Virus record (IMG/VR): IMGVR_UViG_3300027798_000020
Coordinates: 32,001 to 96,000 of that record
DNA length: 64,000 bases
Reading direction: 5' to 3' (one strand)
Origin: a virus
Part shown: positions 16,086 through 64,000 of the stretch, piece by piece
How the letters are laid out: each line of letters starts with the position of its first letter
Position numbering within the stretch: position 1 is the stretch's first letter
Notes under the pieces: model-generated
The model's input: only the letters and a program-made list of their open reading frames with translations
Told to the model about the DNA's origin: nothing
Database searches by the model: none
Program-made: the position numbers and the translations under genes

Positions 16086-16088
16086 GTA

Positions 16089-16117
16089 TTGACAGCACCC
16101 AAGTTTGGTGCTATAAT
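16089..16117 (+). promoter_or_regulatory. sigma70-like promoter with an inverted repeat in the spacer
   Basis: TTGACA-N17-TATAAT; AGCACC/GGTGCT at 16094-16112. Confidence 0.85.
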
Positions 16118-16148
16118 ATACATATCGTTAAACAAATAGGAGCTTGAA

Positions 16149-30800: not shown

Positions 30801-32295
30801 CACTGGAAACGCATCAGCAACACATATTGTTGGTAGTCCAGTTGTTGACCTAACTAACGCACAGATTAACTACCAAATTAATCCGGGTGTTATTGTCAAT
30901 GCTGACGTTAACGCGGCAGCTGGCATTGTACAAAGTAAATTATCAATGACGCTGGCTACAACTTCTGCCAGCGCACCAACAGGTACTGCCGCACAGAAAC
31001 AAGCTGCCAGTGGCGTAGCAAGTTTTGATAGTGCTAACTTTACTATCACAGACGGTTGGGTTGGAATCAAAGCAGGTGGTGTTGCTCTAGCAGAAATTAC
31101 TAATCTCGGTAATGGTTCTATACTTGGAAACTTTTCTGGCACTGCCAGTGCTCCAAGAGAAGAAACTGCACAAACTGTTTTAGATGCTGGATTTAATTTA
31201 AAATTTACCACTAACGTAGGCGTTGTAACATACGGCGGAACATCTGGTTCTGCTTCAATTACTACTATATCTACAGATGGTACTGCCAGTACAATTGCCA
31301 AATACGGCTCATCTGGTGAGTTTGATACTAAACAATTAAAAGTTGACGGATTTAAAGCCCTTGACGTTTCAGCAAATGCTTTAGAATTCTTTACTCCGGC
31401 AGGTTTTAAATTCCAAAGTGCAATTGGTTCTACAGGTAGTAATACCGTTACTACTGCATTAGGAACTTGGGACTTCAGTGGTGGCACATTAAAAGCCACT
31501 GCGTTTACTACAGGTGCTGCCGCAACTGCTGGTAGTATTACTGGACAGTGGGCAGTACAGTCAAGTAGCTTGGTTGACTTCTCTCTAGGCACATTAAAAT
31601 CAACTACATTAACTACAGGTGCTGCCGCAACTGCTGGTACTGTAACTGGTGCTTGGAGTTTAGGTGCTTCTAGTTCGTTTGATGCTACAGCAGGTACATT
31701 AAGAAGTTACAGTCTATCAACAGGGACTGTTAGTCAAGCTGGTACTATTACTGGTGCTTGGAGTTTAGGTTCTACTAGTAGTTTAACTACCGGCACAGGA
31801 TACATTGATGCTAGAAATGGAACGTTATATACTGCTTCTCTAAATGCAGGAAATGCAACAGCAACAGGTACTATTACAGGTAACTGGAGTACCAGCGGTA
31901 ATCTAGCAGCCACATACGGTGCTGACTTAGCTGAGTGGTATAGAGCTGATACAGAATACGAGGTAGGAACTGTCTTAATATTTGGTGGCTCTGCTGAAGT
32001 AACTGTATCTAATACCATTGCTGACACTAGATTAGCAGGTATTGTTTCTACAAATCCAGCATACATTATGAATGATGGCTTAGAAGGCACACGAGCATTA
32101 ATTGCACTTGCAGGGCGTGTTCCATGTAAAGTGCTAGGTAGAGTTAAAAAAGGTGATATGCTAACAACATCTGCAACTCCAGGCGTGGCAGTTAAAGCAT
32201 TAGATCCTAAGCTAGGTACTATCATTGGCAAGGCACTTGAGGATAAAGACTCTGGTGACATTGCTGTAATTGAAGTGGCCGTAGGAAAGGTGTAA
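21847..32295 (+). CDS. giant (3482 aa) virion structural / tail-baseplate protein
   Basis: T4 gp9/gp10-like N-terminus (IG...NDGTGDSIR..F.K.NENF.E.Y); helical C-x-R-D repeats; G.Y.E..PI...SI.GDEFR beta-helix cap; Thr/Gly-rich fibre modules; C-terminal ADLAE...GIVSTNPA...GRVPCKV.G...KGD chaperone/autocleavage-like domain. Confidence 0.85.
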   Translation: MARQEIDIGVQGNDGTGDSIRESFRKVNENFNEIYAIFGAGGAISLTNLSDAQSLRFIDGEGYVADYGQNRLIISKTDGSGLAAKTLIAGEGISIDVTDPDKVTITNALSTTASDPAPKLGGPLNSNQFPIGKVPDPSSDLVASFNAVHGPRGVTTTLDELAISKGYADRNYVKSQGGLIGDALRVRDEPLVPQIEEDDYDPTLTSNYVANETLPRKNVVFRGGDSMTGPLILNDHPGAIAGIGSPNGADDLQAATKYYVDNSTYSSAINLFVTTKGDDTQALTPRGKEGRFWNYAYKSVGAACLAAEGLITISQTEPGPYRQRIAYTQGPDQTFSLVTNVTLSGGNSGDTGYVNAFDLLRVNKEFIQYETIAYINNKYVNTFTFDKAKCSRDVGLMIDAVTLDLVLGTTYNTVLAATRYYDESSSKVLSDQLIQTVDAIRFVRDSILNFSYSNTILSAYIGDVIDALCFDVVYQSNFRSIRMAEKFPSAETGIEFEQLIGVLTDLKESILGLSQVVAVPIAVDIINDNINLMIALIQGDEAPTPTLPSVLGVTKGSNSDSRELLLNNIDFIQSEIIAFLTAEYPGLQYSKETCKRDVRLMIEAVIYDLLYGNNTTGVNVASVYAGQRYWVGTQRQIAAPELVPTLAAVEYINTLAQSIVQNQTPAVVYQTTTKQYRNQTFSRVSGVGADAVATRTRITELITIIKGLVEVNVPPAIVEVDVSNTSGTSSALRGVRTAILGTGGNANRTALRNAAVAYVNENYPVINNALALQTINSNFQIIIDLLEIGISSRPEVTYISPESLGGGVTSARELMLENISFIQEETIGWINTNFPDLIYNQNTCKRDLKYIIEAVAYDITYGGNSASVFAGELYWINAVSQVVGQITQTIEGINYAQQIIGQVISNVNILQSYQSPPFQVPQFIDLDLEDGIDATVEINSLFTAIKDLIASESLTIDSQYPALDTGDYSEAYLAIRQTIQNEKSVIQDETVKYLDVTYKGGFNYDEAICFRDVGLIIEAMAIDLVTDGTYQTINAGTSYYRNTSAKSIAIGTQYKETLDGIEYAKTLAVQVLNRTTASRYQSLYTQTFNISGTLPSSLYGMIGDRGAPSQGAITDLTYNMNTLIGIIVNGFGSAPTPSFGTGLWTVRHSNGGNSYVDQGNPNNNDILPAKVLVGVSSDAFANIVTYAPGLSDTSDTITCRLTKPAYYQVGEQIEFGEKVKDLQIVIFVEAGIYYEDYPIKLPTNCSIKGDEFRRTIIRPKDRISQSPWRKVLFYRDAIIDAMQLGPIDTSVDYKTNTTINVSATNGTIVVTLGSGQVPSSWIGRLLVVDSTVPGRPEGKAVIDSVSGNFMNCSVVYPFEVAGIKQPVDWHLYATTNYGRHYLVNPLDVNSSPKNNKEIDIFLCNDATRINNLTMQGHGGFAMVLDPEGQILTKSPYGQVCSSFSQSINRKRFAGGQYIDGFAGRLRGAISAVANNGGQITITGAVNSGLDVRAPQPPCAFFISGTRYQINDIVSYNSATSSVTVTMDTATPWNGGFNFNEAKCSRDVGLIIDAVTYDLVTGSNYQSINAGRSYLRSYSSLVRGNVQLAKTIQALEEVTSQVVASIPGNTTAIAILQDRMQLVIDILRDGASAIPEPVYPALSWQTTPYTNARDILLANKEFIGEEVVSWIGVNFNVAQIPNYSVNTCRRDVKYIVEALVHDIIYGGNSMSQDAGLAYFRGTTSYIPGEEAVTIAAYNYMKGILNSIVQNNLITKSAGNDLTQNVSLPVSNSTVGTAVIALVDVLNDILSGGTTSTPYQFPSNFTGVSTVLTTARATVLSVKTTIATDIIVFLREGLGTLINIEMGGNKSMLANDFAMINDLGYGIVANNGGVTEQVSTFSYYCHTHYWASNGGQIRSVAGSNSHGTYGLRATGYDVTELPDEVNLADNMIQVARVYKEGLFVNEMTPTIAKQSLAVYITDYDYGPQNISELEVDHSLAGFGVTRYEVNAVERTAVTVNGVNILKLNLSTAGNNGTSSVGLVTALYNGQLVTIRTLQNNKYLGIANVNPTRPSTALQYTDNLADIYRVITYNLTEGTGELLPQNQAVLSTDTSFLYFKIVVDPAKIGTVDWIEPTKTMGFNVGDTRLAILSIAKQNTIDQINKGTYITGWNGRIHRVAQYYGIPETVLTDYNPVGSTGVTLKVTSTTGIHEGMEVNGNGFISNQTVVAVVNSVTLTLSGAPDSTPGGGLSFVSLRPAYLELEETPIYNIGGTGTITPALTFNSITGTGLETRYITFDTPWQLTPQTVDSYVNVSGQGNSLYNGPKQVTKIISETLVTVASTSSLDVGMIITGSTVTGNVNLTDIVSLTQFKVSPAIYLPAGTNITATKVATLGSVTIVNGGSGYLTPPVITISGGGATIDALVTCTVVGGSIDTVTVVNPGYNYTSLPNLSIEVAGDNNAVLVPVLTATSTTNVTATAGVNTSQITLAYKTDPNTSGTISATTVTTNWINISTTTNLYVGNTIVFSGTAFGGITAATTYYIIQVGTGQIKVSTSKGGSSITLSTAVGAMTFVANSFNFGTSITATGFGSQTGTGPYSVTLNFGSTTAPETGQYYKVEGNSNPIYNGFFNCTASTTTSITLTYPNNPGVYGSGTTLITKELTKGTNVSTGISKPFGNIDATTIRLGYAAGAQGQVTTRISTCRATGHDFLDIGTGGYSTTNYPYQIYGNPAISRKGENETYEEGVGRVFYVTTDQNGIFRVGRFFTVDQGTGTVTFSASIALSNLDGIGFKRGVVVSEFSTDASFTNNAPDAVPVQSATRGYIDKRLGLDHGGAPIAASNLVGPGYLALNGALAMKGNVNANNYKVINLAPPTDINDATPKAYVDAQVRLYDQLSELLDVDVGTPIAGDLAVFVGGSKIMVSATTAGDLSATFTNSTPTTLAVPIISLLAVDVTTITVVNAAAFGTGPGYVKVNNEVFYYSSTNYGANRLDGVQRISTTTDTKFGINTGNASATHIVGSPVVDLTNAQINYQINPGVIVNADVNAAAGIVQSKLSMTLATTSASAPTGTAAQKQAASGVASFDSANFTITDGWVGIKAGGVALAEITNLGNGSILGNFSGTASAPREETAQTVLDAGFNLKFTTNVGVVTYGGTSGSASITTISTDGTASTIAKYGSSGEFDTKQLKVDGFKALDVSANALEFFTPAGFKFQSAIGSTGSNTVTTALGTWDFSGGTLKATAFTTGAAATAGSITGQWAVQSSSLVDFSLGTLKSTTLTTGAAATAGTVTGAWSLGASSSFDATAGTLRSYSLSTGTVSQAGTITGAWSLGSTSSLTTGTGYIDARNGTLYTASLNAGNATATGTITGNWSTSGNLAATYGADLAEWYRADTEYEVGTVLIFGGSAEVTVSNTIADTRLAGIVSTNPAYIMNDGLEGTRALIALAGRVPCKVLGRVKKGDMLTTSATPGVAVKALDPKLGTIIGKALEDKDSGDIAVIEVAVGKV
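31507..31770 (+). repeat. 105-nt period intragenic repeat (35-aa TTGAAATAGTxTGxW units)
   Basis: 28-nt exact copies at 31507-31534 and 31612-31639; 21-nt exact copies at 31645-31665 and 31750-31770. Confidence 0.85.
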
Positions 32296-32296
32296 T

Positions 32297-32716
32297 ATGA
32301 GATACAAAGAATTTATTTTAACTGGATTGGGTCAACTTCCCAGTGTGGGAGATAGTTTTGATATTGAACTTGACAACATAGTATTAGAAACCGGAGTGGT
32401 TGGATTTGTTAGCGACGGCATTGTAGTAGAAATTGATGCAATTGGTCTTAGTCACTTATCGGGGTTTCAGCTTGACGAAGCAGAATACCAGGGGCGTAAT
32501 GTACCTTTAGGTAAAAAGATGGCAGGCGATGTAAAGAAATCAAAAGTGTATGTGCGCAAACCTAATGGCAATATTGTCAAAGTTAACTTTGGTGATAAAA
32601 CTATGCGTATTAAAAAGTCTAATCCTGCAAGACGCAAGAGTTTTAGAGCAAGACATAACTGCAAAAATCCAGGGCCACGTTGGAAGGCTAGATATTGGAG
32701 TTGCAGAAGTTGGTAA
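32297..32716 (+). CDS. hypothetical protein with basic C-terminal domain (DUF6321-like)
   Basis: EAEYQGR...KVNFGD...RRKSFRARH.C...ARYWSC..W. Confidence 0.75.
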   Translation: MRYKEFILTGLGQLPSVGDSFDIELDNIVLETGVVGFVSDGIVVEIDAIGLSHLSGFQLDEAEYQGRNVPLGKKMAGDVKKSKVYVRKPNGNIVKVNFGDKTMRIKKSNPARRKSFRARHNCKNPGPRWKARYWSCRSW

Positions 32717-51907: not shown

Positions 51908-52765
51908 ATGACAGACTTATATAAAACTTTAGGAATTGACCCAACTGCTAGTCAGGACGAAATTAAGCAGGCTTATCGAAGCTTGGCTATGAAACATCAT
52001 CCTGACCGAAATGGAGGCAACGATTCTAAATTTAAAGATATTCAAGGTGCGTATGCTACCCTAAGCGATCAACAAAAACGAGCTGAATACGATCAAATGC
52101 GCAATGGCGGAGGTAGTCAATTTAGATTTACTTCTAGTGAGGGGTTTGATCCGTTTGGGGATATGTTTGGAGGGGTTCCTCCGTTTGGGGGACAGCATCC
52201 GTTTGGAGATATATTTGGAAGGCAACGAGTTAGAAAAAATCGCGATTTAAATATACAATGTCAAATATCTCTATTAGATAGCTACGTTGGTAAACAATTG
52301 GAAGCCAGCTACCAATTGCCTAGTGGTCGATTACAAAGTGTTATTATTAATGTACCTCCCGGTATTGAACACGGTGCAACTATTAGATATCAAGGATTAG
52401 GTGATGATAGCCATCCTCAGTTGCAAAGAGGAGATTTAAATGTTACAATACTAGTAATGCAAGATCCCAAGTTTAGGCGTGAAGGGAACGATTTATATAC
52501 CCATTTAGATATAAGTCCAATTGAAGCAATGATTGGTTGTAGAAAATCAGTTGTATCTATAAACGGACAACATATAGCTATAGACGTTAGACCTGGGGTT
52601 GAAACTGGTGTTGAATATGCTGTGTTAGGTCACGGTTTTGCAAACGTTAACAACGCTATGCGTGGGCGATTGGTTGCTGAAATTAGAATTAAAACACCAG
52701 AGATAACAGATCCGGCACTGATTGAAAAATTAAAATTAATCGATCACGAAATTAATCATAGATAA
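51908..52765 (+). CDS. dnaJ: DnaJ-class chaperone lacking the zinc finger (CbpA-like)
   Basis: J domain with HPD, G/F-rich linker, GDL.V...F.R.GNDL C-terminal domain. Confidence 0.92.
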   Translation: MTDLYKTLGIDPTASQDEIKQAYRSLAMKHHPDRNGGNDSKFKDIQGAYATLSDQQKRAEYDQMRNGGGSQFRFTSSEGFDPFGDMFGGVPPFGGQHPFGDIFGRQRVRKNRDLNIQCQISLLDSYVGKQLEASYQLPSGRLQSVIINVPPGIEHGATIRYQGLGDDSHPQLQRGDLNVTILVMQDPKFRREGNDLYTHLDISPIEAMIGCRKSVVSINGQHIAIDVRPGVETGVEYAVLGHGFANVNNAMRGRLVAEIRIKTPEITDPALIEKLKLIDHEINHR

Positions 52766-52774
52766 AGGAAATAT

Positions 52775-55036
52775 ATGGTAGAACCAAGCGACAGTCTCCA
52801 AGCAGTTTTTGAAAAAGCTATCGAAAGTGCAAGACAACAAAGACATGAATATTTAACAATAGAACACTTGTTGTTTGCTATGCTATGCGAAGAGTCATTT
52901 GCTAACTGCCTACAAGGCTACGGAAGTGATCCTGATTATATTAAAAAGAATCTTGAGCACTACCTAAAGAATAAATGTGCAGAAATCACAGTAGAAGATG
53001 TTGTAGTTAAGCCAAAGAAAACTCAATCAGTTGAACGGGTACTTAATCGTGCATTTACTCAGGTGCTGTTTAACGGCAGGCAGCGGATTGAGCCTGCAGA
53101 TGTATTCCTATCAATTATTGGTGAGAAACGCTCTTGGGCATACTTTTATATCCAACAAGCAGGCATCGATAAAGATAAATTTGCAGATTATCTAAACAAC
53201 GTATCTGAATCACCAGAGGAAGAAGAGCTGCCAGACCAAGTTGGAACTAAAGCTCTTAAAGCGTTTACTACCAATCTTAATGATGCAGTTAAGAAGGGAG
53301 CAGTTGATCCGGTAATTGGACGCATTGACGAGCTAGAAAATATTGCTCTAGCATTAGGTCGTCGTAGTAAAAACAACGTTATCCTAGTTGGTGATCCAGG
53401 TGTTGGTAAAACTGCCATTGCAGAAGGCCTTGCTTACAATATTGTCAAAGGTGCAGTTCCGGACTTTCTAAAAGATTATACTGTCTTTAACTTAGATATT
53501 AGTGCAATGCTTGCAGGTAGTAAGTATCGTGGAGATTTTGAAGAGCGTTTTAAAGCAGTGCTTAAAGGTCTTAGTAAGAAAGGTAAGACTGTGTTGTTTA
53601 TCGATGAAGCACATATGATTAGTGGTGCAGGTTCAGCAAGCAACTCAGCAAACGACCTTGCCAATATGATGAAGCCTGCACTAAGCAAAGGCAATATCAA
53701 AGTAGTTGCATCAACTACATGGGAAGAGTATCGCAAGCACTTTGAGAAAGATCGTGCGCTAATGCGAAGATTCCAACGTATTACTGTTGATGAGCCAACT
53801 ACAGAAGTTACCTTACAGATTCTTAAAGGTATTAAAAAATACTATGAGACACATCACAATGTTAAGATTAAAGACGAAGCGTTGCAAATTGCAATTAAGT
53901 TAAGTGTACGATATCAGGCAGATAAGAAATTACCTGATAAAGCAATTGACCTTATTGACTGTGCATGTTCTAGATTTAATTTAAAGCTAGCCGATGAACG
54001 AGTAGTTGGTGCTAAAGAAATTGAATACGAGTTGTCAAAGATGATTCAAATTCCAGAAGAAGTAGTAGCGGAACAGGAAAGTGACGGGCTTGTTACGTTA
54101 CAAACTCGTCTACAGGATGAAGTGTTTGGTCAAGATCTTGCAGTGCAAGAAGTAGTTGATAAGATCGTAGTAGCCAGAGCCGGATTAAAACCTGACAACA
54201 AACCAGTTGGGTCGTTTGTGTTTATGGGACCAACTGGTTGTGGTAAGACTGAAACTGCCAAGTCACTTGCAAAACACTTAGGAGTTAAGTTACTACGATT
54301 TGATATGTCAGAATATCAAGAGAAGCATAGTATCTCTAAGCTGATCGGTAGTCCTCCGGGATATGTCGGATTTGAAGAAAATGCCGGACAACTAATTACA
54401 CAGATTCAAGAAAACCCAAATGCTGTGTTATTATTTGACGAAGTTGAAAAATCACATCCAGATGTAACAACTGTACTCTTACAAATGATGGATAACGGTT
54501 TTATTACTGGATCAAACGGAAAGCAAGCAGACTGTAGGAATTTACTATTAATCCTTACTACAAATGCTGGCGCTCAAAGTGCTGAAAAGAATAACATCGG
54601 TTTTGGTAAGCAAGAAAAAGAATATGCCGATACTGATCTTAAAAAGTTCTTTACGCCAGAGTTCCGTAATCGTTTAGACGGTATTATTACTTTTAACAAA
54701 CTTGAAAAATCTACTATGACTAAGATCGTTACTAAGTTTATCGATGAACTTAAGGAACAGGTCAAAGAAAAGGGCGTTCGTATCAAGATTGATAAAGATG
54801 CAGTTGAGTGGTTGATTGACAAAGGATTTGATAGCAAGATGGGAGCTCGTCCATTACAGCGTGTGATTGACAAAGAGATTAAACGCGACCTTGCTAAAAT
54901 GATGTTGTTTGGAGATTTAAAACTTGGCGGATGGTTAACTATTACTATAGCAGACGACAAGTTATTCCTATCATCTAGAGGTAAGACTCCAAAAATTCCG
55001 TTGATATCAACGACTGTTTTAGAAAATGCTGACTAA
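52775..55036 (+). CDS. clpA: ATP-dependent Clp protease ATPase subunit
   Basis: RHEYLTIEHLL N-domain; two AAA+ modules (GDPGVGKT, GPTGCGKTE); no ClpB M-domain; IGF ClpP-docking loop; GARPL.R. Confidence 0.93.
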   Translation: MVEPSDSLQAVFEKAIESARQQRHEYLTIEHLLFAMLCEESFANCLQGYGSDPDYIKKNLEHYLKNKCAEITVEDVVVKPKKTQSVERVLNRAFTQVLFNGRQRIEPADVFLSIIGEKRSWAYFYIQQAGIDKDKFADYLNNVSESPEEEELPDQVGTKALKAFTTNLNDAVKKGAVDPVIGRIDELENIALALGRRSKNNVILVGDPGVGKTAIAEGLAYNIVKGAVPDFLKDYTVFNLDISAMLAGSKYRGDFEERFKAVLKGLSKKGKTVLFIDEAHMISGAGSASNSANDLANMMKPALSKGNIKVVASTTWEEYRKHFEKDRALMRRFQRITVDEPTTEVTLQILKGIKKYYETHHNVKIKDEALQIAIKLSVRYQADKKLPDKAIDLIDCACSRFNLKLADERVVGAKEIEYELSKMIQIPEEVVAEQESDGLVTLQTRLQDEVFGQDLAVQEVVDKIVVARAGLKPDNKPVGSFVFMGPTGCGKTETAKSLAKHLGVKLLRFDMSEYQEKHSISKLIGSPPGYVGFEENAGQLITQIQENPNAVLLFDEVEKSHPDVTTVLLQMMDNGFITGSNGKQADCRNLLLILTTNAGAQSAEKNNIGFGKQEKEYADTDLKKFFTPEFRNRLDGIITFNKLEKSTMTKIVTKFIDELKEQVKEKGVRIKIDKDAVEWLIDKGFDSKMGARPLQRVIDKEIKRDLAKMMLFGDLKLGGWLTITIADDKLFLSSRGKTPKIPLISTTVLENAD

Positions 55037-55640
55037 AGAAACTAGACGTCTATTTCAAGGACAATACCAGTACAAGGCAGTACTGGTATGTCCGGCGGCG
55101 GGCTGGTTTAGAGGTAGAAATGTCAGTGAAGCGTTAGATAAGATAAAAGAAAACGGTATTGGTGCTCATAAAAATCCGTTTAATAAAGTTAAAACCCCAG
55201 AAGATTTTGACTATTGCATGAAACTGGCCAAGACTATTTTAAAAATGTCAAATTTTAATATTAGAGTTGAAAGCCCGTTTATAAGTTTCTATACAAACAA
55301 TCGTCAAGATATTGATCTATTAACTAAATTAGATACCGAAAGAGTGAAATATATTAGTATTCCTTCTGGTACTGTTGAAATGAATACTATTATAATGCCT
55401 AAAATTGACTTTGATTTTAGAGTTACCTTAGGAAAAAGTAATAAACCACAAGATAGCTTTGTAGAGTGGGCCGATGCTAACAGTAAGATTAAACTAACTA
55501 AAGGCTGTAAGAGTCAGTTGCTTAGATCAGTAAGCTGGGGCGGGAGCTATTTTTACGTTAAAGGCGAAAAACAGCTACTAATGGCTAAAATGATGCTGGG
55601 TGGCAGCATTAACAAAGTAGAAACTATTGTTAAAAAATAG
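55026..55640 (+). CDS. hypothetical protein
   Basis: 204-aa ORF overlapping the end of clpA. Confidence 0.75.
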   Translation: MLTKETRRLFQGQYQYKAVLVCPAAGWFRGRNVSEALDKIKENGIGAHKNPFNKVKTPEDFDYCMKLAKTILKMSNFNIRVESPFISFYTNNRQDIDLLTKLDTERVKYISIPSGTVEMNTIIMPKIDFDFRVTLGKSNKPQDSFVEWADANSKIKLTKGCKSQLLRSVSWGGSYFYVKGEKQLLMAKMMLGGSINKVETIVKK

Positions 55641-55663: not shown

Positions 55664-55671
55664 GATAAATA
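55664..55671 (+). promoter_or_regulatory. late-promoter-like GATAAATA heading the putative internal-protein cluster
   Basis: Recurring motif in an intergenic gap. Confidence 0.6.
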
Positions 55672-55710: not shown

Positions 55711-56064
55711 ATGCGAATTAACGAACTAGTAGAAAATATTGATTTAGATCTACACTTTAATAATAAAAAACAGGAAGATACAGGCTTTGACATAGCTGAA
55801 GATCTGTTGTTTTATATGCAAAACAACGACGATGTGTATCGTCGGCATGTTTATCCCCAGGTAATCAAGCATAAAGCCGCTATGAAAACTGGCAAGGCTA
55901 ACCGTAGCCTATTCAGCAATGCTACTCTCGAAGCTTACAAAGCATATTCAGCAGAGTTTCCAATTAAAAAACTACCATCTAAATTACCTAAAGATGTTCA
56001 AGAAAAAGTTTGCTTAGAACTTTATAAGAAGTGTACTGAAGAATTTAGTACCGGTAAAAAATAA
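55711..56064 (+). CDS. hypothetical protein, putative internal head protein
   Basis: ATG at 55711 gives an MRINELVE leader. Confidence 0.7.
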   Translation: MRINELVENIDLDLHFNNKKQEDTGFDIAEDLLFYMQNNDDVYRRHVYPQVIKHKAAMKTGKANRSLFSNATLEAYKAYSAEFPIKKLPSKLPKDVQEKVCLELYKKCTEEFSTGKK

Positions 56065-57296
56065 TGCTACTTAGAGAACTATTTGCTTTTACAGAAGCTA
56101 AAAAACAAACTGCTATCGATGACGATAGCATGGATCGATACGGACGTCCGTTTAATCATCCAGAGCATTTTGTTTTTTTTAAGGGACAGCGTGGCACACT
56201 AGAGCAATTAAATAATTTTAAAGAAATTATTGAAGAAAAACCAGGTAAGACATCACTAAGGCGTAAGTGGGATGGTAATCCTCAAGTTTATTGGGGTAGA
56301 GAAGTTAAAAACGGCCCGTTAATCTTAGTAGGTCATAACCAATGGTCTCGAGGTGTTAAAGCAGAAAGTCCTAAAGAGATTGTTGACTTTATTGTTAATC
56401 AAAGTGGCACAGCCAAGACTGCTGATGAAGTTGCTAAACGTAATCAGTTTGCACAGAACTTTGCCAACCTTTATCCTTTATTTGATGCGGCAACACCTAA
56501 AGACTTTGTAGGATTTGTTTATGCCGATGCACTATACGGTGTTGACCCATTACTAAACAAGAGTCTTGATGACGGTGGTGCAGACTACCCCAAGGGGATT
56601 TATACTTTCTGTCCTAATCCAAGATCCAATACTTGCTATCATGTAGATGCAGGCAGTGAATTAGGTAACAGGATTGCACAAGCCAAGGTAATGGTAGTAG
56701 GGCACGGTTATTTCTCAACGTTTGGTATGAATGATGCCTCTCAAGAACCACTTGATGATTTTGATATGTTTAATCAAAGTCCAGGATTAATCGTTCAAGG
56801 TCCTATCTATACAGAAACTGCACCTGAAGTAGATCAATCTGTATTAGAAGAAGTTAACCAAGCTATAGAATATGCAGAACAATACGGTGCAACTATTGAT
56901 AATTTCTTAGGGTCATTACCTGATCCAGATAAGAATGGAATTTTTTACCCATTCTTTAATCAAATGAGCAGAGAACATGCTAAGGGGCAACGAAACTTTT
57001 CTGATCTTGCTGGACACGATTTTACAGAATGGATGAAAAAGAAAGGTGTTAGTGCCGCTAAACAAAAACATATTGTTGATATGGTACAAGAGCACCCCGG
57101 CGGATTAGACGCTATCTTTTTTCTAATTAAAGAAATAAGAGATATTAAAGATGCAATAGATGCATCAGTTAAATCGCAACCTCGTCGAGAGATATGGGAC
57201 ACTAACGGTGAAGGACATGTACGTTATCCACAGAAGCATCATAAATTTGGTGCAGTTAAGTATGTTCCAACTACTTGGGTTCCTGCAGGAAATTAA
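56064..57296 (+). CDS. hypothetical protein with KxDG motif (ligase/nucleotidyltransferase-like, DUF6267-like)
   Basis: HPE...RKWDGNP.VYWG...ADALY...EGHV...K.V; MLLRELFAFTE leader. Confidence 0.55.
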   Translation: MLLRELFAFTEAKKQTAIDDDSMDRYGRPFNHPEHFVFFKGQRGTLEQLNNFKEIIEEKPGKTSLRRKWDGNPQVYWGREVKNGPLILVGHNQWSRGVKAESPKEIVDFIVNQSGTAKTADEVAKRNQFAQNFANLYPLFDAATPKDFVGFVYADALYGVDPLLNKSLDDGGADYPKGIYTFCPNPRSNTCYHVDAGSELGNRIAQAKVMVVGHGYFSTFGMNDASQEPLDDFDMFNQSPGLIVQGPIYTETAPEVDQSVLEEVNQAIEYAEQYGATIDNFLGSLPDPDKNGIFYPFFNQMSREHAKGQRNFSDLAGHDFTEWMKKKGVSAAKQKHIVDMVQEHPGGLDAIFFLIKEIRDIKDAIDASVKSQPRREIWDTNGEGHVRYPQKHHKFGAVKYVPTTWVPAGN

Positions 57297-57298
57297 TC

Positions 57299-58573
57299 AT
57301 GAAATTAAGAGAATTTTTTACAATAGAAGCAAGTTTAGCATTAGGAAAATTTGGTGCTAGGACTGTCGACGATGTTGTAAAAAGCAGTGACGATATTGCA
57401 AAGACAGGAACTACTACACAGTCAGTTGGACAGAAAGTAGGGACAAAAATTGCGGCTGGTACAAAGGTTCAGGCAAAATCAAAAGAAAAAGAAACTGATC
57501 AAGAAGTTGCTATAATATTTGGACGGTTTAATCCACCACACGTTGGCCACAAAGAAGCATGGATCAAAGCATCTGAAAGTCCTGTTTGGTATTTAGGAAC
57601 TAATCAAGCAACTGTCGGTCCAAGCGACCCGTTGCCATATGAAGTTAAAGTTGAATGCATTAAGACAATTTGGTCGGGCACTGAAGGACATATAGTGCCA
57701 GAGCAGACGTGGTGGACATTAGCCACTTACGTTTATAAAAAACACGGCCCAGTGACATTGGTCGTTGTTACAGACGAACAAGATGCAAAAGTGTTTGTAC
57801 CAGGATTGCAGAAATCAAATGGCGTACAAGGGCCGCACGGTTTTTATAACTTTAAAAAAATTGAGTGGAGAAAAGCTGATAGAATTTCCTCAGCTACTGA
57901 TCTTAGGGCCGCAGTACTAGAAGGCAATAGGAAAAAATTCACTCAGGCTGCAGGCGTAAGTAGTGAAACTCCGGTAATGGGTAAACCATTCTTTGATGTT
58001 GTAGCCAAATATCTATTGCCTTACAAAGATCAAATATTAGCTTCAATGGCTAGAAAAGCCGCTAAAGCTGTTAAGAAGAACGAAGATGCAGCCGGTGTAG
58101 GCATTATTACCAAACAAAATACCACAGTAGATGTTGATGCATCTACACCATACAAGAATTTAAAAGCATTTGGTCTAGTAAAAGAAACACTTGACGAAAT
58201 AGAACAAGCCATGATGGCTGAAGCAAAACAAGCTAAAATATCAAAGCGACAAAGTCAGTCGAGTCGAGGTATAAGCATCTACGGTGACGAAGAAAAAGCC
58301 AACAGTGATTATGTAGCATTCAAGTTAGGTCAAGCTATGGCTAGCACTGACGGCAAAACTGTTCCTGACATTGATGCTAAGAGTTGGTATGGAAAAAAGA
58401 AAACTGTGCATCCATATACAGAAGTTGAAAATGAAATGTTTAAAAAGGCCGCTAAGGCAGTGGGTGCTTCTTACACTGATCTAAATAACGGCGATATGGA
58501 AAGTAAAGAGTTAGATAGTACTAATACAGTAAGTCCGATCCCAACACGTAAGACTAACCAATACGGTGTGTAA
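57299..58573 (+). CDS. HxGH cytidyltransferase-like domain fused to additional small modules
   Basis: FGRFNPPHVGH, DPL...K, ISSATDLR; MKLREFFTIE leader. Confidence 0.75.
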   Translation: MKLREFFTIEASLALGKFGARTVDDVVKSSDDIAKTGTTTQSVGQKVGTKIAAGTKVQAKSKEKETDQEVAIIFGRFNPPHVGHKEAWIKASESPVWYLGTNQATVGPSDPLPYEVKVECIKTIWSGTEGHIVPEQTWWTLATYVYKKHGPVTLVVVTDEQDAKVFVPGLQKSNGVQGPHGFYNFKKIEWRKADRISSATDLRAAVLEGNRKKFTQAAGVSSETPVMGKPFFDVVAKYLLPYKDQILASMARKAAKAVKKNEDAAGVGIITKQNTTVDVDASTPYKNLKAFGLVKETLDEIEQAMMAEAKQAKISKRQSQSSRGISIYGDEEKANSDYVAFKLGQAMASTDGKTVPDIDAKSWYGKKKTVHPYTEVENEMFKKAAKAVGASYTDLNNGDMESKELDSTNTVSPIPTRKTNQYGV

Positions 58574-58812
58574 TGAACGAATTAGATCAAATTAAAAAGT
58601 TAGCAGGGATAAACGAGTTTAAAGGATATTTAAACTATAGCCCTGTTGATCCGTTTGGTGGGAGTAATATCAGCCTTACTGGAAACGAAAAAGGCGAACT
58701 AATGAAACAACATAATATCAAACCCGGAACTCCAGAGTGGTTCCAGCTTTGGTTTAGTTTGCCAAAGCTAACTGGAGAGAAACCAGTGGGTGAAGGAATA
58801 AGGACAAAATAA
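58573..58812 (+). CDS. hypothetical protein
   Basis: ELDQIKKLAGI...IKPGTPEWFQLWF. Confidence 0.75.
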   Translation: MNELDQIKKLAGINEFKGYLNYSPVDPFGGSNISLTGNEKGELMKQHNIKPGTPEWFQLWFSLPKLTGEKPVGEGIRTK

Positions 58813-59333
58813 TGAAGGTCATACAAATTTTATCAGAAGTGTATGGTCGTAATCCAGACACAATGAGTCCCGGTGATTACGATCGTTACCAGCAAAATCA
58901 AATGGATTCTGAAAGACGTAATTTTAAACGTGGTGAAATGGAACATGAATTAGGTCACGAAGATGATCCCGACTTTGAAAGAAAACTACGTCAGCAACAA
59001 AAGAACAAAGACCGCGGCCCTTGGTACTTACGTGTTAACGGAAAGATACTAAAAAGCCAAGGCGAACCTAAGACGTTTGAATGGAAAAAAGGTGCTAATA
59101 ACTATGCCCTGGCAATAATCAAAAATAAACCTGAATTACAAGGTAAGATTATGCTTACCAAACGCCCGCAAGACGACGAAACAGTGGTAGAGATTGCCTC
59201 TAGCGGTGCAACAACTGCCGGTGATATGTCGGTCGGAGCAGTACATAAGAATCAAAGCCCTAAGATGCAAACGCCCACAGATAACGCCGTAGACGGCGAT
59301 AATCTACTGACCGGCGGCAGCATCAAACGCTAA
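58812..59333 (+). CDS. hypothetical modular protein, putative internal head protein
   Basis: MKVIQILSE leader; coupled ORF. Confidence 0.7.
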   Translation: MKVIQILSEVYGRNPDTMSPGDYDRYQQNQMDSERRNFKRGEMEHELGHEDDPDFERKLRQQQKNKDRGPWYLRVNGKILKSQGEPKTFEWKKGANNYALAIIKNKPELQGKIMLTKRPQDDETVVEIASSGATTAGDMSVGAVHKNQSPKMQTPTDNAVDGDNLLTGGSIKR

Positions 59334-59358
59334 ATATAAGACTACGGAGTTTTTTACC

Positions 59359-60633
59359 ATGCAAGATATGAACGAACCACAATCAGCAATGCCAACAGAT
59401 CATGAAGGCGCAATGGCCAAGGCTGATCTATACAAACTAGCAAATTATAGCTATAAGCTGTTTAAAATGTTAGATGGAGACCAACAATTAGAAGGTTGGG
59501 TCCAAGCTAAGATTACTAAAGCGGCCGATTACATTGCGTCTGTGTATCACTACATGGAATACGAGATGAAATTTAGCGAATACGGAGAACAGTTAGAAAC
59601 TGCCGACGTATACTCTGAAAGTCAACGAGTTGAACTGCGTAACAAGCTGATGGAAGCTAAAGACAAGATTAAACAGTTAAAGCAGAAGCAAGCTGAAAAA
59701 ATGTCTAAGAAAGATGTTAAAGAAGAAAAAGAAGAAAAGTCGTCAACTGGTGGTAAGATTGATCGTAGTAAAAAAGGTGTTACCAAGCATACACAAAATC
59801 CAAATCGTTTTAGCGATGAGCCGCATACAGAACCAAAGTCACAAGCCAAGTCACAATCAGCTGCCGATAAAGCAAGTGACAAGGCTGCTGACAAAGCAGA
59901 AGAAAAAGAAGGCAAGAACTGGGAAAAGCGTTTTGGTAAAGATTCCGTAACTCGTGTTAAAGACGGCCAAAAAGTTAAAGAAGCACTTGATCCTGTAGGT
60001 AAAGAAGACGACGACGTAGACAATGACGGTCAAAAGAATACCAAGTCTGACAAGTATATCAAAACAAAACGTGCCGCTGTAAGTAAAGCAGTAGCTAAAA
60101 ATGTTAAAGAAGCTGCCGATGAAAAATGTAACCATACTGCCAAAGGCAAAAAATGCCCAGTGCATGGTTTGAAAGAATGTGGCGGCATGTCTGAAGCTTC
60201 CAAGCCAGACTTCTTAGACGTAAACAAAAACAAAAACAAAAAAGAACCAATGAAGCAGGCTATTGCTGACACAAAGAAAGGCACTGCACCGAAGAAAGGT
60301 GTAAATCCTTTTGCTAAAAAAGATTCTCCAGTTAAAAAAGCTGTTGCTAAAGCAAAAGCCAAAATGGAAGGTTCTATTCAAGGCGGTGTATGGGTAAGCA
60401 GTCCCGACAAAGGTGTTCCTCCCCCACAAGACGTAGACGGCGGAAGCGTTGCCCCTGCAAAGAAAGCTAAAAGCCCTTTCCCAAGCCGTAATGATCCAAA
60501 GAAGGCAGCAGGTGCGGCTGCTACTAAACCTGGCACGGCTAATCCAGCAATGCCAAGTCGTAACAAAGAAACAGTAAAAGAATCTGCAGATTTGTTTCGT
60601 ATGAAGCAATTAATGACTCGCTTAAACGGATAA
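59359..60633 (+). CDS. highly charged modular protein, putative internal head/core protein
   Basis: DHEGAMAK...LEGWVQAKITKAADY domain followed by Lys/Glu-rich modules. Confidence 0.75.
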   Translation: MQDMNEPQSAMPTDHEGAMAKADLYKLANYSYKLFKMLDGDQQLEGWVQAKITKAADYIASVYHYMEYEMKFSEYGEQLETADVYSESQRVELRNKLMEAKDKIKQLKQKQAEKMSKKDVKEEKEEKSSTGGKIDRSKKGVTKHTQNPNRFSDEPHTEPKSQAKSQSAADKASDKAADKAEEKEGKNWEKRFGKDSVTRVKDGQKVKEALDPVGKEDDDVDNDGQKNTKSDKYIKTKRAAVSKAVAKNVKEAADEKCNHTAKGKKCPVHGLKECGGMSEASKPDFLDVNKNKNKKEPMKQAIADTKKGTAPKKGVNPFAKKDSPVKKAVAKAKAKMEGSIQGGVWVSSPDKGVPPPQDVDGGSVAPAKKAKSPFPSRNDPKKAAGAAATKPGTANPAMPSRNKETVKESADLFRMKQLMTRLNG

Positions 60634-60637
60634 TTAT

Positions 60638-61690
60638 ATGGACATGAAGAAACTTCTACAGACCTTAGACAGCTCTTCTAAAAAGGCTGCAGAAGGGTCC
60701 AGCGACATGAAAAAACTTCTTCAGGTGGTTACCGAAGGTAAGAATCCTAAGACTAATAGATTGTCACAGGCAGAAAATATAGTGTATATGAATACACCTA
60801 AACCAAAGCCAGTTGATCTAAACGAAACTCCTAGTCTGTTTAAAACTTATCTAAAGCTAGTTGAAGAAGAAGACATTAATCAAGAAGACAACTTAAGACT
60901 AAAATTGTCTGAACACTTGTCCGAAGTAAAAAGTACTCCTGCACCAAAGCCACCTAACTTTGTAGCCAAACACGCTATGAAAACAACCAGCGGTGCTGGC
61001 GCACACACAAATAAAAAGCGAGCTGAAAAGCAAGGCGATGTCAAACACAAGAAACAGGCAGTTCCTGTAGATGAAAACTTATTGACAATGGAAAGTCAAA
61101 GTGTGTTAGAAGGCAGCGCACACGGATATAATGTTACTAAATTTTATAGAAAATTTAGAGACCAGAGTAAAATTACTAGGTGGTTAAAGAAAGAAGCGGG
61201 CCTGCCAAAAGAAACAAAGCTGTACTTTGATGATGCTGATCTAGTGTTAGGCAGTGATACTATTGTGCCATATGCTCTAGTTGATGAAACTTTAAAATTT
61301 AACGATTTACTAACTGCACTAGTTAAAGTAACAGGTGGCACAGCAAAACAAAAAGTAGACGGTGTGTATAGATCGCAAGGTGTAGATGAAAACTTATCCC
61401 CGCCAGATGGAGCAACTGCTCCGCCACCAAAAGGCAAAGATGGTCAGTATCCTATTGTAACATCTGGACCACACAAAGGTAAAAGATGGAGCCCACAAAC
61501 TCCGGGCCCTACAAATCCAGCGTTCAAAGAAGGTGTAGCAGGCCCACAGCACTGCTGGCCTGGGCACAGAAAAGTTGGCACCCAACCTGGTACTGGCAAG
61601 AACGCAGGTAAGCGTGTAAACGACTGCGAGAAGATTAAAAAAGAAAGCGTTAAGCCTAAAACAACACCAGTGAACGAAGGCGACGAGTAA
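60638..61690 (+). CDS. modular hypothetical protein, putative internal head protein
   Basis: Duplicated DMKKLLQ leader; CWPGHRKVG...VNDC.K module. Confidence 0.75.
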   Translation: MDMKKLLQTLDSSSKKAAEGSSDMKKLLQVVTEGKNPKTNRLSQAENIVYMNTPKPKPVDLNETPSLFKTYLKLVEEEDINQEDNLRLKLSEHLSEVKSTPAPKPPNFVAKHAMKTTSGAGAHTNKKRAEKQGDVKHKKQAVPVDENLLTMESQSVLEGSAHGYNVTKFYRKFRDQSKITRWLKKEAGLPKETKLYFDDADLVLGSDTIVPYALVDETLKFNDLLTALVKVTGGTAKQKVDGVYRSQGVDENLSPPDGATAPPPKGKDGQYPIVTSGPHKGKRWSPQTPGPTNPAFKEGVAGPQHCWPGHRKVGTQPGTGKNAGKRVNDCEKIKKESVKPKTTPVNEGDE

Positions 61691-61691
61691 C

Positions 61692-62129
61692 ATGGAAGAT
61701 TTAAAGCAGTCAATGAAAGTAGCTATGGCTAGCACCTTTGTGTTTTACATGAAAGCACACTACTTTCATTTCAATGTTGAAGGTATATTCTTTAAACAGT
61801 TCCATGATTTATTTGGTGCTATATACGAAGAAGTATACGGCAGCATTGATCAGTTTGGTGAAGAAATTCGCGCACTAGGATCTTATACACCAATGAGCAT
61901 TGGCAGATTTCAGGAACTTAGTGTTATTGACGAACCACCCGGTGTAGTCAGTGCTGAAGAAATGGTTAACGAACTTATGCAAGACAACGCCAAATTGATT
62001 GAACTACTTAATCAAGTATTTGGTCTTGCAGATTCAACTAATGAACAAGGATTAGCTGATTTTATAGCTGGTCGTTTAGACTCACATAAAAAACATGCTT
62101 GGATGCTTAGAGCAACTAGCAAAGGATAA
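61692..62129 (+). CDS. dps: Dps family ferritin-like protein
   Basis: K.H.FHFNVEG..F.QFH.LF...YEE....D..GEEIRALG...HKKHAWML. Confidence 0.92.
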   Translation: MEDLKQSMKVAMASTFVFYMKAHYFHFNVEGIFFKQFHDLFGAIYEEVYGSIDQFGEEIRALGSYTPMSIGRFQELSVIDEPPGVVSAEEMVNELMQDNAKLIELLNQVFGLADSTNEQGLADFIAGRLDSHKKHAWMLRATSKG

Positions 62130-62132
62130 ATC

Positions 62133-63944
62133 ATGGACATAAAAAATATTATTGCAAGACTACGACAAATCAACGAAGCGTTGAGTTTGCAAGATGTGCA
62201 GGCAGCTGAAAAGCAGGCAATGGATGCGGCAGCGGCAAAGAAAAAATCAGGTGGATGGGGTGGATTTACTACTCTTGATCCAGTAACTGCCGGTAACGAT
62301 GCATTAGCGGCGTTGGCTGCAAAAAGTGGTTTGCCTGGACTGATGAACAGCAAAGGTGAATTTGTTGTTGCGCAAGGTGATGCAGAGTTTCATTCTAAGC
62401 CAAATAGTCCAAGAACAGCACCTCCTAACAGAGATGACACACTAGCATTACAAAAGCTAGGGTTGATTCCGGGCAATGCACAAGGTCCAAGTGGATTAGC
62501 AAACATGCTGACTAGAGGTGATGCTGAAAGAGAATTTCAAGCTAGTAAAACCGACTCTGCTAGAACTGGCGCAACTAACACTAGCAATGAATTTATAAAG
62601 AGACGCCTGGGTCAGCTTAAGAATCTAGTGGCTAGAATTAGATCAAAAGGTGCGGCAGCAGGTGGAGCAACACCCGGTGCTCCTGCGCAATCAGGTAAGT
62701 CTGTAATGAAGCCGCCAACTCAGGCCCAAACTCAAGGGTGGGATGTTCCGGGAGTTAACATAGTTAAAGAATCAATACATAGTTCACTATCAAATATATT
62801 AAAAGAAGAATTTGGATACGATCTAAGTGAAAAGGTAACCTTAGGCACTGGACCTGTTGTCCAACAAGACATAGGTAACGGTATAACTATCAATGCTGGT
62901 CAATACCAAAAAGAAGTAGCATTAATTAGAAAGATCATGGCTGAACTTGCAGATATTGATGATCCAGAAGTTATTGCCGCGTTACAAGATGCACAAGCCG
63001 CATTAGACGAATTAGCAAAAGGTTCCTCTGCAGGTGGTTCGGGCAGTGCAGGTGACAAAGAAAAAGATCGTGCTAGAATGAAAGAGCTTGTGGCTCTTAC
63101 TAAGAAGCCTCCAGTTAGTGATACTGACATGGAAGAATCAACTCAACCAAAATCATTAAGTGAAAGCATGGGTGCTATTAGAAATAAACTTCTGTTATTA
63201 GAAGCACCGTTGCCTGTTCCAGCAGGCGCAGGTCGTAACGCTATTGCTACACGCCCCAATTTACCTGCAAAACGTCCCGGTGCTGCCGACGATGTTATTG
63301 ATGTTGATGCTAGAGTAATTCCTAACAAATCGGGAATGAGTATGGGGCAAAAAGTTGCCATCGGTACCGGTGCTGTAGGTGCAGGGACTGCAGGTGTTAC
63401 TGCTCTCAACGGAGAAAAACCAGCTCGTGATCCAAACGGAGCATATCGTGGAGATAGAACTGACGTAAAACCTACTACTCCGGCCCGTGATCCAAACGGA
63501 GCATATCGTGGAGATAGAACTGACGTAAAACCTACTGCGGCTACAGGACCAACAACTGCGGCGCCAGCAGATGCGCCAGCACAGTCAGGTAAAGCCGCGG
63601 GTGCTGGTAGTGATTACACTATCGTTAAGGGTGACAATCTTACAAAGATCAGTAAAAAGTTTGGCGTAAGCATCCAAGACATTATGAAAGCCAATCCTTA
63701 CATTAAAGATCCAAACTTGATTTATGCAGGTAAGACTTTGAAAATTCCAGGTGGGGCAGCTGATCAAGGCGGCACTACTTCTGGAAGTGTTGGCGGTGGC
63801 AAAACTAATCTTACAAAATGGTATGCTAGCGAAATGGCAGAACTAGAGACACTTATCGGCAAGTATGCTAACGACCCAGAGATGGCTGACGATGTTAAAA
63901 CGGCAAAAGCTCAGTTAGACGCACTTAAAGCTACTGGACAATAA
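62133..63944 (+). CDS. LysM-domain modular protein
   Basis: YTIVKGDNLTKISKKFGVSIQDIMKANPYIKDPNLIYAGKTLKIP LysM near the C-terminus. Confidence 0.85.
   Translation: MDIKNIIARLRQINEALSLQDVQAAEKQAMDAAAAKKKSGGWGGFTTLDPVTAGNDALAALAAKSGLPGLMNSKGEFVVAQGDAEFHSKPNSPRTAPPNRDDTLALQKLGLIPGNAQGPSGLANMLTRGDAEREFQASKTDSARTGATNTSNEFIKRRLGQLKNLVARIRSKGAAAGGATPGAPAQSGKSVMKPPTQAQTQGWDVPGVNIVKESIHSSLSNILKEEFGYDLSEKVTLGTGPVVQQDIGNGITINAGQYQKEVALIRKIMAELADIDDPEVIAALQDAQAALDELAKGSSAGGSGSAGDKEKDRARMKELVALTKKPPVSDTDMEESTQPKSLSESMGAIRNKLLLLEAPLPVPAGAGRNAIATRPNLPAKRPGAADDVIDVDARVIPNKSGMSMGQKVAIGTGAVGAGTAGVTALNGEKPARDPNGAYRGDRTDVKPTTPARDPNGAYRGDRTDVKPTAATGPTTAAPADAPAQSGKAAGAGSDYTIVKGDNLTKISKKFGVSIQDIMKANPYIKDPNLIYAGKTLKIPGGAADQGGTTSGSVGGGKTNLTKWYASEMAELETLIGKYANDPEMADDVKTAKAQLDALKATGQ
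63426..63536 (+). repeat. 60-nt period tandem duplication (51 nt identical)
   Basis: 63426-63476 is identical to 63486-63536; encodes (PA)RDPNGAYRGDRTDVKPT twice. Confidence 0.92.
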
Positions 63945-63958
63945 TTTTATCCACTCCT

Positions 63959-63989
63959 AAAATGGCAGACTAAGTCTGCCATTTTTTTT
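63959..63989 (+). terminator. intrinsic terminator
   Basis: AAAATGGCAGAC-taa-GTCTGCCATTTT ending in a T8 tract. Confidence 0.88.
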
Positions 63990-64000
63990 GATTTAGCTAT

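Follow-up and report, generated by a model that had tools for sequence, protein, structure and literature searches.

The internal proteins (IPs) of bacteriophage T4 are unrelated to one another, and as such homology between their mature parts does not define the mechanism by which they are handled. The work of Mullaney and Black in 1996 is said to have described the elements that do, namely a T4 capsid targeting sequence (CTS) and the processing of internal proteins by gp21. The first ten residues of T4 IPIII are enough for packaging, its processing depends on residues 8 and 10, Asp at position 10 (P1) blocks that processing, and the internal proteins of the T-even phages form a diverse set in which the CTS is the sole shared feature (PMC9026906; PMC3012670). 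In this work we examine nine genes at positions 55711-63944 of a 64,000-nucleotide (nt) stretch of viral DNA, hereafter the window, which corresponds to positions 32001-96000 in a virus contig of 111.1 kb from IMG/VR (IMGVR_UViG_3300027798_000020), a fragment at a CheckV completeness of 31%. These genes are, we consider, probably a modular expansion of the T4 internal-protein (IP/Alt) system, in which chains of modules jointed by protease sites would enter the head, be cleaved and be delivered together with the DNA.

Leaders and probable late expression of the cluster

The nine genes are tightly packed on the + strand, which carries nearly all genes of the contig. They are set out below with their flanking signals; a slash marks the point after a Glu at which cleavage is predicted, and proteins are hereafter named by the first coordinate of their gene.

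55664-55671, + strand: GATAAATA, a late-promoter-like motif of the T4/cyanophage type (NATAAATA form), 46 nt 5' of the first ATG (55711)
55711-56064, + strand: 117-residue protein of no known family, leader MRINELVE/N (nt 55711-55734)
56064-57296, + strand: 410-residue DUF6267 protein (PF19782), leader MLLRELFAFTE/A (nt 56064-56096)
57299-58573, + strand: 424-residue cytidylyltransferase/NMNAT-like protein (phrog_3041, phrog_395), leader MKLREFFTIE/A (57299-57328)
58573-58812, + strand: 79-residue protein, long leader MNELDQIKKLAGINE/F (58573-58617)
58812-59333, + strand: 173-residue protein, leader MKVIQILSE/V (58812-58838), a 118-residue module followed by a 46-residue cassette
59359-60633, + strand: 424-residue cassette polyprotein without an N-terminal leader, 3420 representative clusters at E<=1e-3
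60638-61690, + strand: 350-residue cassette polyprotein, duplicated leader MDMKKLLQ..DMKKLLQVVTE, ending VTE33/G
61692-62129, + strand: 145-residue Dps/ferritin-like protein without a leader (PF00210 at 7.9e-22; phrog_3636)
62133-63944, + strand: 603-residue protein, long leader MDIKNIIARLRQINE/A (62133-62177), low-complexity regions and several hydrophobic-x-Glu (hxE) sites
63959-63995, + strand: intrinsic-terminator-like hairpin, 12-bp stem and T run, 15 nt past the last stop codon

Six of the nine proteins matched no family in Pfam, PHROGs or NCBIfam, and no peptidase was detected in these chains, which range from 79 to 603 residues. Seven of the nine genes nonetheless open with a short leader, 8-33 residues in length, that ends in hxE. 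The initial annotation of this DNA had likened such leaders to the T4 CTS, and a direct comparison with T4 propeptides, taken from the T4 record NC_000866, bears this out. The T4 sequences are MKTYQEFIAE/A (IPII/IPIII), MKTFKEF...ITE/A (IPI), MELITELFDE/D (Alt), MAKINELLRE/S (gp24) and MLKEQLIAE/A (gp22), of which that of IPIII resembles MKLREFFTIE/A, that of Alt resembles MLLRELFAFTE/A and that of gp24 resembles MRINELVE/N. Leaders fall into a short type, M[KR][LIV]x[DE]hhxE, and a long type, MD[IM]K..h..h.hxE. That of the 58573 protein is conserved in orthologues as MDDISQLKKLAGINE/F and MNLDELKKLAGINE/Y, and 109 of 120 DUF6267 homologues (at 59-92% identity) begin with [MV]LLRE, nearly all then continuing with LF..E/A. 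The ATG codons at 55711 and 57299 were chosen over upstream GTG and TTG (57275) starts; they give leaders and agree with the orthologues. All of the leaders named in the initial annotation are present in place (MKLREFFTIE from the ATG at 57299), save that MRYKEF at 32297 had to be rejected as a member, as it matches no leader pattern, has no hxE nearby and sits in the tail-fibre region. A reading of the leaders as signal peptides, or as leaders of ribosomally synthesized and post-translationally modified peptides (RiPPs), was likewise dropped: they are short, charged and amphipathic, and match T4 head propeptides.

The leaders are a property of the cluster. Over six contigs, the pattern ^M[KR][LIVM].[DENQ][LIVFM] was matched by 19 of 61 open reading frames (ORFs) within the cluster and by 0 of 190 outside it, and a second pattern by 18 of 61 versus 3 of 190. 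Applied to 50 kb of T4 (82 ORFs), the second pattern picks out IPII, IPIII, Alt, gp24, gp21 and gp22, and three others. A leader pattern also matches T4 gp2 (MAIFQIINE/S), the head-internal DNA-end protector, a match that may be meaningful, and T4 lysozyme e (MNIFEMLRIDE), where the match is probably due to chance (both within T4 60000-80000, our L027, at 16062-16886 and 6504-6998). When IMG/VR was scanned with the NMNAT-like protein, 20 loci came up. Those that span the region (L005, L007, L009, L014 and L023) have this cluster too, again placed after the ClpA-like gene, and almost all of its genes there open with M[KR][LIV]x[DE]hhxE or the longer MD[IM]K... leader; the 55711 protein has orthologues in L005, L007, L014 and L023, and the Dps/ferritin-like gene is embedded at the same place in the relatives.

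Given that a promoter-like site and a terminator bracket nine packed genes, the segment 55664-63995 looks, at the level of motifs, like a single late transcription unit. There are 15 + strand copies of the relaxed form NATAAATA in the contig, nine of them 11-46 nt before a gene start, structural genes included; the exact T4 late promoter TATAAATA was not found upstream of the cluster.

Modules, junctions and putative cleavage sites

When compared by BLAST with the loci of relatives, the window proteins prove to be mosaics. The NMNAT-like protein has an enzyme domain at approximately residues 64-262 and a site MMAE308/A (the E codon ends at 58222), and the C-terminal 116 residues that follow (58223-58570) correspond to a separate leader-bearing gene of 124-129 residues in nine loci. 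In L006 and L007, the NMNAT gene ends in what are residues 7-123 of the 58812 protein, whose last 46 residues, beyond the site VVE127/I (E codon ending at 59192), occur as a 60-residue gene in L021-L024 and elsewhere as the C-terminus of 219-residue proteins. Pieces of the 60638 protein were found in three different host proteins, and a comparison of this protein with that of the close relative L005 (orthologous proteins 84-96% identical) reveals a 105-residue module inserted exactly between two VDE/N sites.

The observation that we regard as most telling is that, in at least seven independent module families, the Glu that ends a stand-alone leader falls, in the alignment, exactly on an internal hxE of the fused form. 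MKVIDIISE/AKQAKISKRQ thus corresponds to ..QAMMAE/AKQAKISKRQ; MKIRELLE/TASAGG to ETVVE/IASSGA, KFDE/TATVGG and NITE/DPSAST; MKVHEILTE/NVAGPQKCW to PAFKE/GVAGPQHCW; MRIIDIITE/AKQPQAPKPRNF to HLSE/VKSTPAPKPPNF; and MKVIQILSE/VYGR to KVEMAE/AYGR. In a systematic count over 52 distinct internal contexts, Glu occupied the extrapolated position in 28 and hxE in 26, relative to a background of about 2% of positions, and several of the misses are off by one to three residues owing to alignment gaps. The proposals of the initial annotation that modules are shuffled independently across genes and relatives, and that hxE sites lie at their boundaries, are both upheld by these junctions and mosaics, as well as by the cassette alignment that follows.

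The 59359 protein comprises a conserved helical N-domain (residues 13-124), a variable string of cassettes and a conserved C-terminal helix SADLFRMKQLMTRLNG, the bounds being LME99/A, VKE122/E, VKE208/A (the LDPVGKED..DNDG cassette), VKE251/A (a Cys knuckle), MSE279/A (PDFLD) and VKE408/S. An alignment of its family shows the same arrangement of conserved N-domain and C-tail around a variable middle, with hxE columns common to up to nine of nine sequences and a PDFLD cassette that varies in position. Among 150 representatives, hxE was found at a fixed distance before the C-tail (25/25), the LDPVGKED cassette (5/5) and the PDFLD cassette (32/49). The 60638 protein has the sites LSE96/V (before a PKPxNFVAK cassette with a weak match to DUF7230), VDE146/N, VDE251/N, FKE298/G (before a Cys cassette, GVAGPQHCWPGH) and VNE347/G. 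All internal sites that had been listed previously are present, in these two proteins at the residues just given (together with E33 of the 60638 leader) and in the 62133 protein at E15, E213, E233, E335, E344 and E357. The last 16 residues of the 59359 protein (60583-60630; SADLFRMKQLMTRLNG), a confident predicted helix, resemble the long N-terminal leaders such as MNELDQIKKLAGINE, and by this likeness the leaderless family may carry a C-terminal targeting peptide.

The frequency of the motif exceeds that expected from composition. In eight leader/cassette proteins, [LIVMF]xE was observed 57 times versus 35.1 in shuffles that preserve composition (ratio 1.62, z 4.4), with control ratios in the same proteins of 0.97 for [LIVMF]xD and 1.09 for [LIVMF]xK. 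Most of the excess comes from the 59359, 60638 and 62133 proteins, and the two enzyme genes, considered by themselves, show no significant enrichment, as is expected if the sites mark boundaries only. In 149 representatives of the 59359 family, [LIVMF]xE[AGS] is enriched 3.3-fold (z 39, a score that overstates independence, since the representatives, clustered at 50% identity, are related sequences) and [LIVMF]xD stands at 0.96. Position P3 before xE[AGS] favors V (4.1x) and L (3.5x) rather than A, S or G, and P1' favors S, A and G. One could suppose that motif and leaders alike are by-products of a Glu/Lys-rich amphipathic sequence, borne by ordinary late cytoplasmic proteins that stay off the capsid, and a weak general excess of [LIVMF]xE (ratio 1.14) is in fact seen in the other 116 ORFs of the contig. 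We consider this highly improbable, for composition-keeping shuffles fail to give the excess, Asp shows none, leader Glu and internal Glu coincide in the seven or more module families described above, the first leader pattern is absent from the 190 ORFs outside the cluster, and homologues have been detected in virions, as discussed below.

It is a separate question whether the chains are cut internally. The proteins could be packaged or virion-associated with at most the leader removed, the internal hxE being linker or recombination joints that stem from gene fusion and fission in chains that stay intact. Fusions of this kind could arise by deletions that spare the last leader residues, as in NELLE/TAAWRR of L018; some cassettes have no site, and the 62133 protein, with a LysM peptidoglycan-binding domain at residues 495-539 (nt 63615-63749; PF01476 at 2.1e-14) and weaker support for its module boundaries than the other cluster genes, looks like an ordinary multi-domain protein. 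However, the junction tripeptides are diverse (MAE, VVE, FDE, ITE, FKE, LSE, VDE), and what the junctions keep are the protease-relevant positions alone (hydrophobic P3, Glu at P1, small P1') and no other leader residues. The enrichment of Glu and not Asp also matches the block of T4 processing by Asp at P1 (PMC9026906), and the same motif occurs at the maturation site of the capsid protein in a relative, G001. On balance we judge that intact chains are unlikely, and that internal cleavage is probable given the equivalence of junctions, the specificity for Glu and the matching protease family.

Two further features of these proteins deserve mention. The cassette that follows VVE127/ (59193-59330; IASSGATTAGDMSVGAV; stand-alone form TASAGGTSAGNVTVGP) resembles the start of the mature capsid protein of G001 (SE/SASTGATSAGNVATL) and also T4 gp23* (AAGQTSGAVTQIGP), as compared at L023 10384-10566 and L026 6732-7907 (- strand), and from this resemblance the cassette may mimic the N-arm of the capsid protein or its protease recognition region. 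The 62133 LysM protein contains a tandem duplication of an 18-residue unit, ARDPNGAYRGDRTDVKPT, at approximately 63435-63540 (residues 435-470).

Head genes, virion homologues and predicted cargo

A gp21-like protease, which the initial annotation had called for, was found in a relative and in cyanophages that bear homologues of the cluster, and not on the contig of the window: PF03420 was not detected in these 111 kb (31% complete). The relative, G001 (270 kb, 71% complete; its cluster locus is L014), encodes Peptidase_S77 (T4 gp21-type, 91 bits), Portal_T4 and Gp23, in a head module with the T4 order of Portal_T4, a 79-residue gene at the gene-67 position, the protease, a gene at the gp22 position and Gp23. 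In the capsid protein of G001, YLSE/SAS takes the place of the T4 gp23 maturation site FLTE/AEIGG. Peptidase_S77 is also encoded by the cyanophages S-SCSM1 and S-SCSM2R. The 79-residue gene at the gene-67 position of G001 (L026 11150-11389, - strand) starts MILRELFYFNRE, which is nearly the leader of the DUF6267 cargo, a likeness that suggests one docking motif shared by core proteins and cargo. By capsid protein, the nearest cultured phages are the jumbo T4-like Sinorhizobium phage Phosso, Vibrio phage 2.275.O and PA5oct (66-70% identity), which were rejected as models of the cluster after tblastn of two cluster proteins gave no match to them.

When the 59359 protein was used as a tblastn query, the matches fell in T4-like cyanophages. 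In Synechococcus phage S-SCSM1 the match sits within a run of genes, ORF89-93, annotated as 'virion protein', NMNAT included. Mass spectrometry of CsCl-purified S-SCSM1 virions identified 45 proteins, ORF89-93 among them; the authors called the NMNAT unexpected, pointed to comparable enzymes in the virion proteomes of two other cyanophages and offered no packaging route, nor did they note a leader or sites in it (PMC9602691). We find CTS-like leaders in this run, MKSFLQFLKE/A (ORF91), MTHLNDISKVYME/K, MDSKTFNSLSE/A and MATVAETLLALNE/I. ORF91, the virion NMNAT, is 27% identical to the window's 57299 enzyme (E 1e-10). ORF92 contains the window's LDPVGKED and PDFLD cassettes in reversed order, with predicted sites MSE/ALDPVGK and YME/KVAKPDFLDLDK, and ORF93, of 69 residues, matches at 78% identity a cassette that lies inside the 59359 homologue of L014. 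Packaging of the cluster proteins is likely in light of these virion homologues and the likeness of the leaders.

Packaging need not imply a role in the host, however, and the proteins could instead help, as accessory scaffold or core components, to build a very large capsid and be shredded at hxE sites in the manner of T4 gp22, gp67 and gp68, with the peptides mostly expelled or kept only as counter-ions to the DNA. The cassette polyproteins are Lys-rich and by prediction mostly disordered with short helices, the predicted fragments are short and basic, T4 gp22 itself starts with a comparable propeptide (given above) and is cut to small peptides (PMC9026906), and the capsids must be very large at CheckV genome estimates of approximately 350 kb. 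We hold this possibility to be a poor one nonetheless: well-folded enzymes in the cluster bear the same leaders, which is unexpected of a scaffold; homologues are detected in mature virions (PMC9602691); G001 has a separate gene in the gp22 position of its head module; and the module content varies strongly between close relatives, unlike that of an essential scaffold.

With regard to the cargo itself, the AlphaFold2 (AF2) model of the DUF6267 protein is confident (predicted local distance difference test, pLDDT, 89) outside a low-confidence leader, and K68-W-D70-G71, which is like ligase motif I (KxDG), is the same in all of 47 sequences. Among long structural matches, VIA-align ranks RNA ligases (5cot, 1xdn, 2hvq, 9r3w) best, at middling Z scores of 5.9-7.0 over 178-193 residues; Foldseek with the same model gave no significant match (E-value 0.1), and neither the DUF6267 nor the NMNAT-like protein found a match in the PDB by sequence. 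By its model and motif, the DUF6267 protein, for which there are 960 homologues, is probably an RNA-ligase-like covalent nucleotidyltransferase. Relatives also carry a 5'-nucleotidase-like protein and a gene with a Pol-beta-type nucleotidyltransferase signature (VGSAGHKASSGDMDL), fused to the ligase-like domain in L023, and a 581-residue protein of one relative has a sub-threshold match to DUF6782 (18 bits). In the predicted structure of the 59359 protein, a helical N-domain leads into a largely disordered middle, and beyond the last site comes a C-terminal helix of high confidence. Most of the predicted fragments are basic (isoelectric points of 8-10) and fall between 16 and 130 residues, and some have DxDxDG or Cys-knuckle motifs. 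The 'library of mini-effectors' that had been envisaged is therefore not what we would draw from these sequences; short basic fragments fit the basic internal proteins and peptides of T4 better than they fit folded mini-effectors.

In the protease-jointed cargo system that we favor, the operon would be transcribed late, and the amphipathic leader, judged by its likeness to the propeptides of T4 IPII/III, Alt and gp24, would act like the T4 CTS and dock the protein onto the prohead's scaffolding core. Peptidase_S77, a prohead protease of the gp21 type, would then cut after the Glu of hxE, which would take off the leader and separate the internal modules. The products, namely the RNA-ligase-like DUF6267 and cytidylyltransferase/NMNAT-like enzymes, many short and mostly basic peptides and the LysM protein, would be retained with the DNA in the head and probably exit with it at infection, ejection and function being steps that we infer. 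As leader Glu and internal Glu would be interchangeable, any module could move between a leader-bearing gene of its own and a link in a chain and keep its route into the capsid, and the observed shuffling would thereby be explained. More tentatively, hxE-bounded modules might constitute a plug-in cargo grammar that pre-loads a fast-evolving kit acting at DNA entry, before phage genes are expressed. It is possible, if doubtful, that such a kit would join RNA-ligase-like, Pol-beta-type and NMNAT-like enzymes, which have the look of an RNA-repair and NAD-restoring counter-defense, with dozens of basic, metal-binding peptides.

A number of observations weigh against the system as we have drawn it. 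The P3 residue of MKLREFFTIE is Thr, which is not hydrophobic, and the 59359 family has no N-terminal leader. Seventeen of the 49 PDFLD cassettes are without a preceding site, the N-terminal 140 residues of the 62133 protein are replaced in the close relative L005 with no site at the boundary, and the motif counts are drawn from related sequences, which are not independent events. No protease, capsid or scaffold gene lies on the 111-kb contig, itself a fragment. Last, ORF93 of S-SCSM1 is found in virions without a leader, so that either the leader is not the sole route into the virion or detection in virions is not specific.

As for the surroundings of the cluster, two genes upstream lie outside the late unit and precede the cluster in the same order in all relatives examined (L005, L007, L014 and L023):

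52775-55036, + strand: ClpA-like AAA+ protein
55026-55640, + strand: conserved 204-residue ORF

ClpA has been noted in T4-like jumbo phages (PMC7824862). DnaJ-like and ClpA-like AAA+ genes together with the 204-residue ORF (51908-55640) stand directly upstream of the cargo operon, and for these neighbors a chaperone or unfoldase role in cargo loading is conceivable. The window additionally contains tail-fibre-like and other virion genes, a clamp-loader-like gene and a 3482-residue protein (21847-32295) to which Pfam gives weak FlgK-like and phycobilisome-like matches alone; cyanophage S-SCSM2R has a 'large exoprotein' gene of similar size adjoining its neck genes. Megablast of the region against cultured phages gave no match, and the source is a giant uncultured T4-like phage.

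Comparison with described systems

The initial annotation had put the cluster forward as an undescribed system. In the literature searched we found no description of cassette polyproteins or of CTS leaders in these phages or in cyanophages; the claim of a new system is nevertheless better restated as an elaboration of the known CTS and internal-protein system of T4. If our account is true, the CTS/gp21 rule would extend from a few coliphage proteins to a large and environmentally widespread set of phage proteins, given the 3420 representative clusters of the 59359 family and the 960 homologues of DUF6267, and would explain NMNAT-like enzymes and many uncharacterised proteins in cyanophage virion proteomes. 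Cassettes bounded by protease sites suggest a simple evolutionary mechanism for the rapid turnover of injected cargo, leader and hxE grammar could be used to flag packaged proteins in metagenomic T4-like phages, and there are hints here of natural rules by which several payloads could be loaded into T4-type capsids.

The T4 IPs (IPI, IPII, IPIII and Alt) share with this cluster a short leader ending in hxE on otherwise unrelated proteins, late expression (here at the level of motifs, a promoter-like site and a terminator), a T4-type Peptidase_S77 with gp20/gp23 head genes (here in the relative G001), basic products alongside enzyme cargo (Alt in T4, and here the ligase-like and NMNAT-like proteins) and a locus that differs strongly from relative to relative. 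When the cluster proteins were searched by BLASTP in the ORFs of two T4 regions (ipI-III and alt), the matches were noise only (E >= 0.39), with no homology beyond the leader. Unlike in T4, several modules are chained here behind one leader with internal sites between them, modules occur now alone and now fused, cassettes can be as small as 20-50 residues, and one family is leaderless with a conserved C-terminal helix after its last site; packaging and cleavage are here predictions.

The phiKZ-like giants (phiKZ, 201phi2-1 and SPN3US) likewise have many internal head proteins that are cut after Glu, sometimes at several sites each (PMC5694885, PMC10052503), with paralogues that have conserved N-termini and cargo enzymes that are packaged and ejected, as is predicted for this cluster. 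Their sites, however, are A/S/G-x-E and their propeptides mostly exceed 100 residues (PMC5694885), in contrast to V or L at P3 and leaders of 8-33 residues here; their multiple cuts lie mainly within discarded propeptides, shuffling of cassettes at sites has not been described for them, and they belong to another lineage.

In concept the cluster also recalls the polyvalent proteins, in which several conflict-related modules in one polypeptide travel with the DNA and are processed into parts (PMC7824862). The chains found here are of 79-603 residues and consist mostly of short non-enzymatic cassettes, with no peptidase domain and joints that fit a prohead protease. Polyvalent proteins are reportedly very large and dominated by enzymatic domains, and were proposed by Iyer et al. 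in 2017 (J Bacteriol) to be cut by embedded peptidase domains. The NMNAT-like virion proteins of cyanophages (S-SCSM1 ORF91, S-CBWM1; PMC9602691), last, have a homologous cytidylyltransferase domain, a CTS-like leader and the same 'virion protein' neighborhood, and differ in that the window gene has an extra C-terminal module fused to it.

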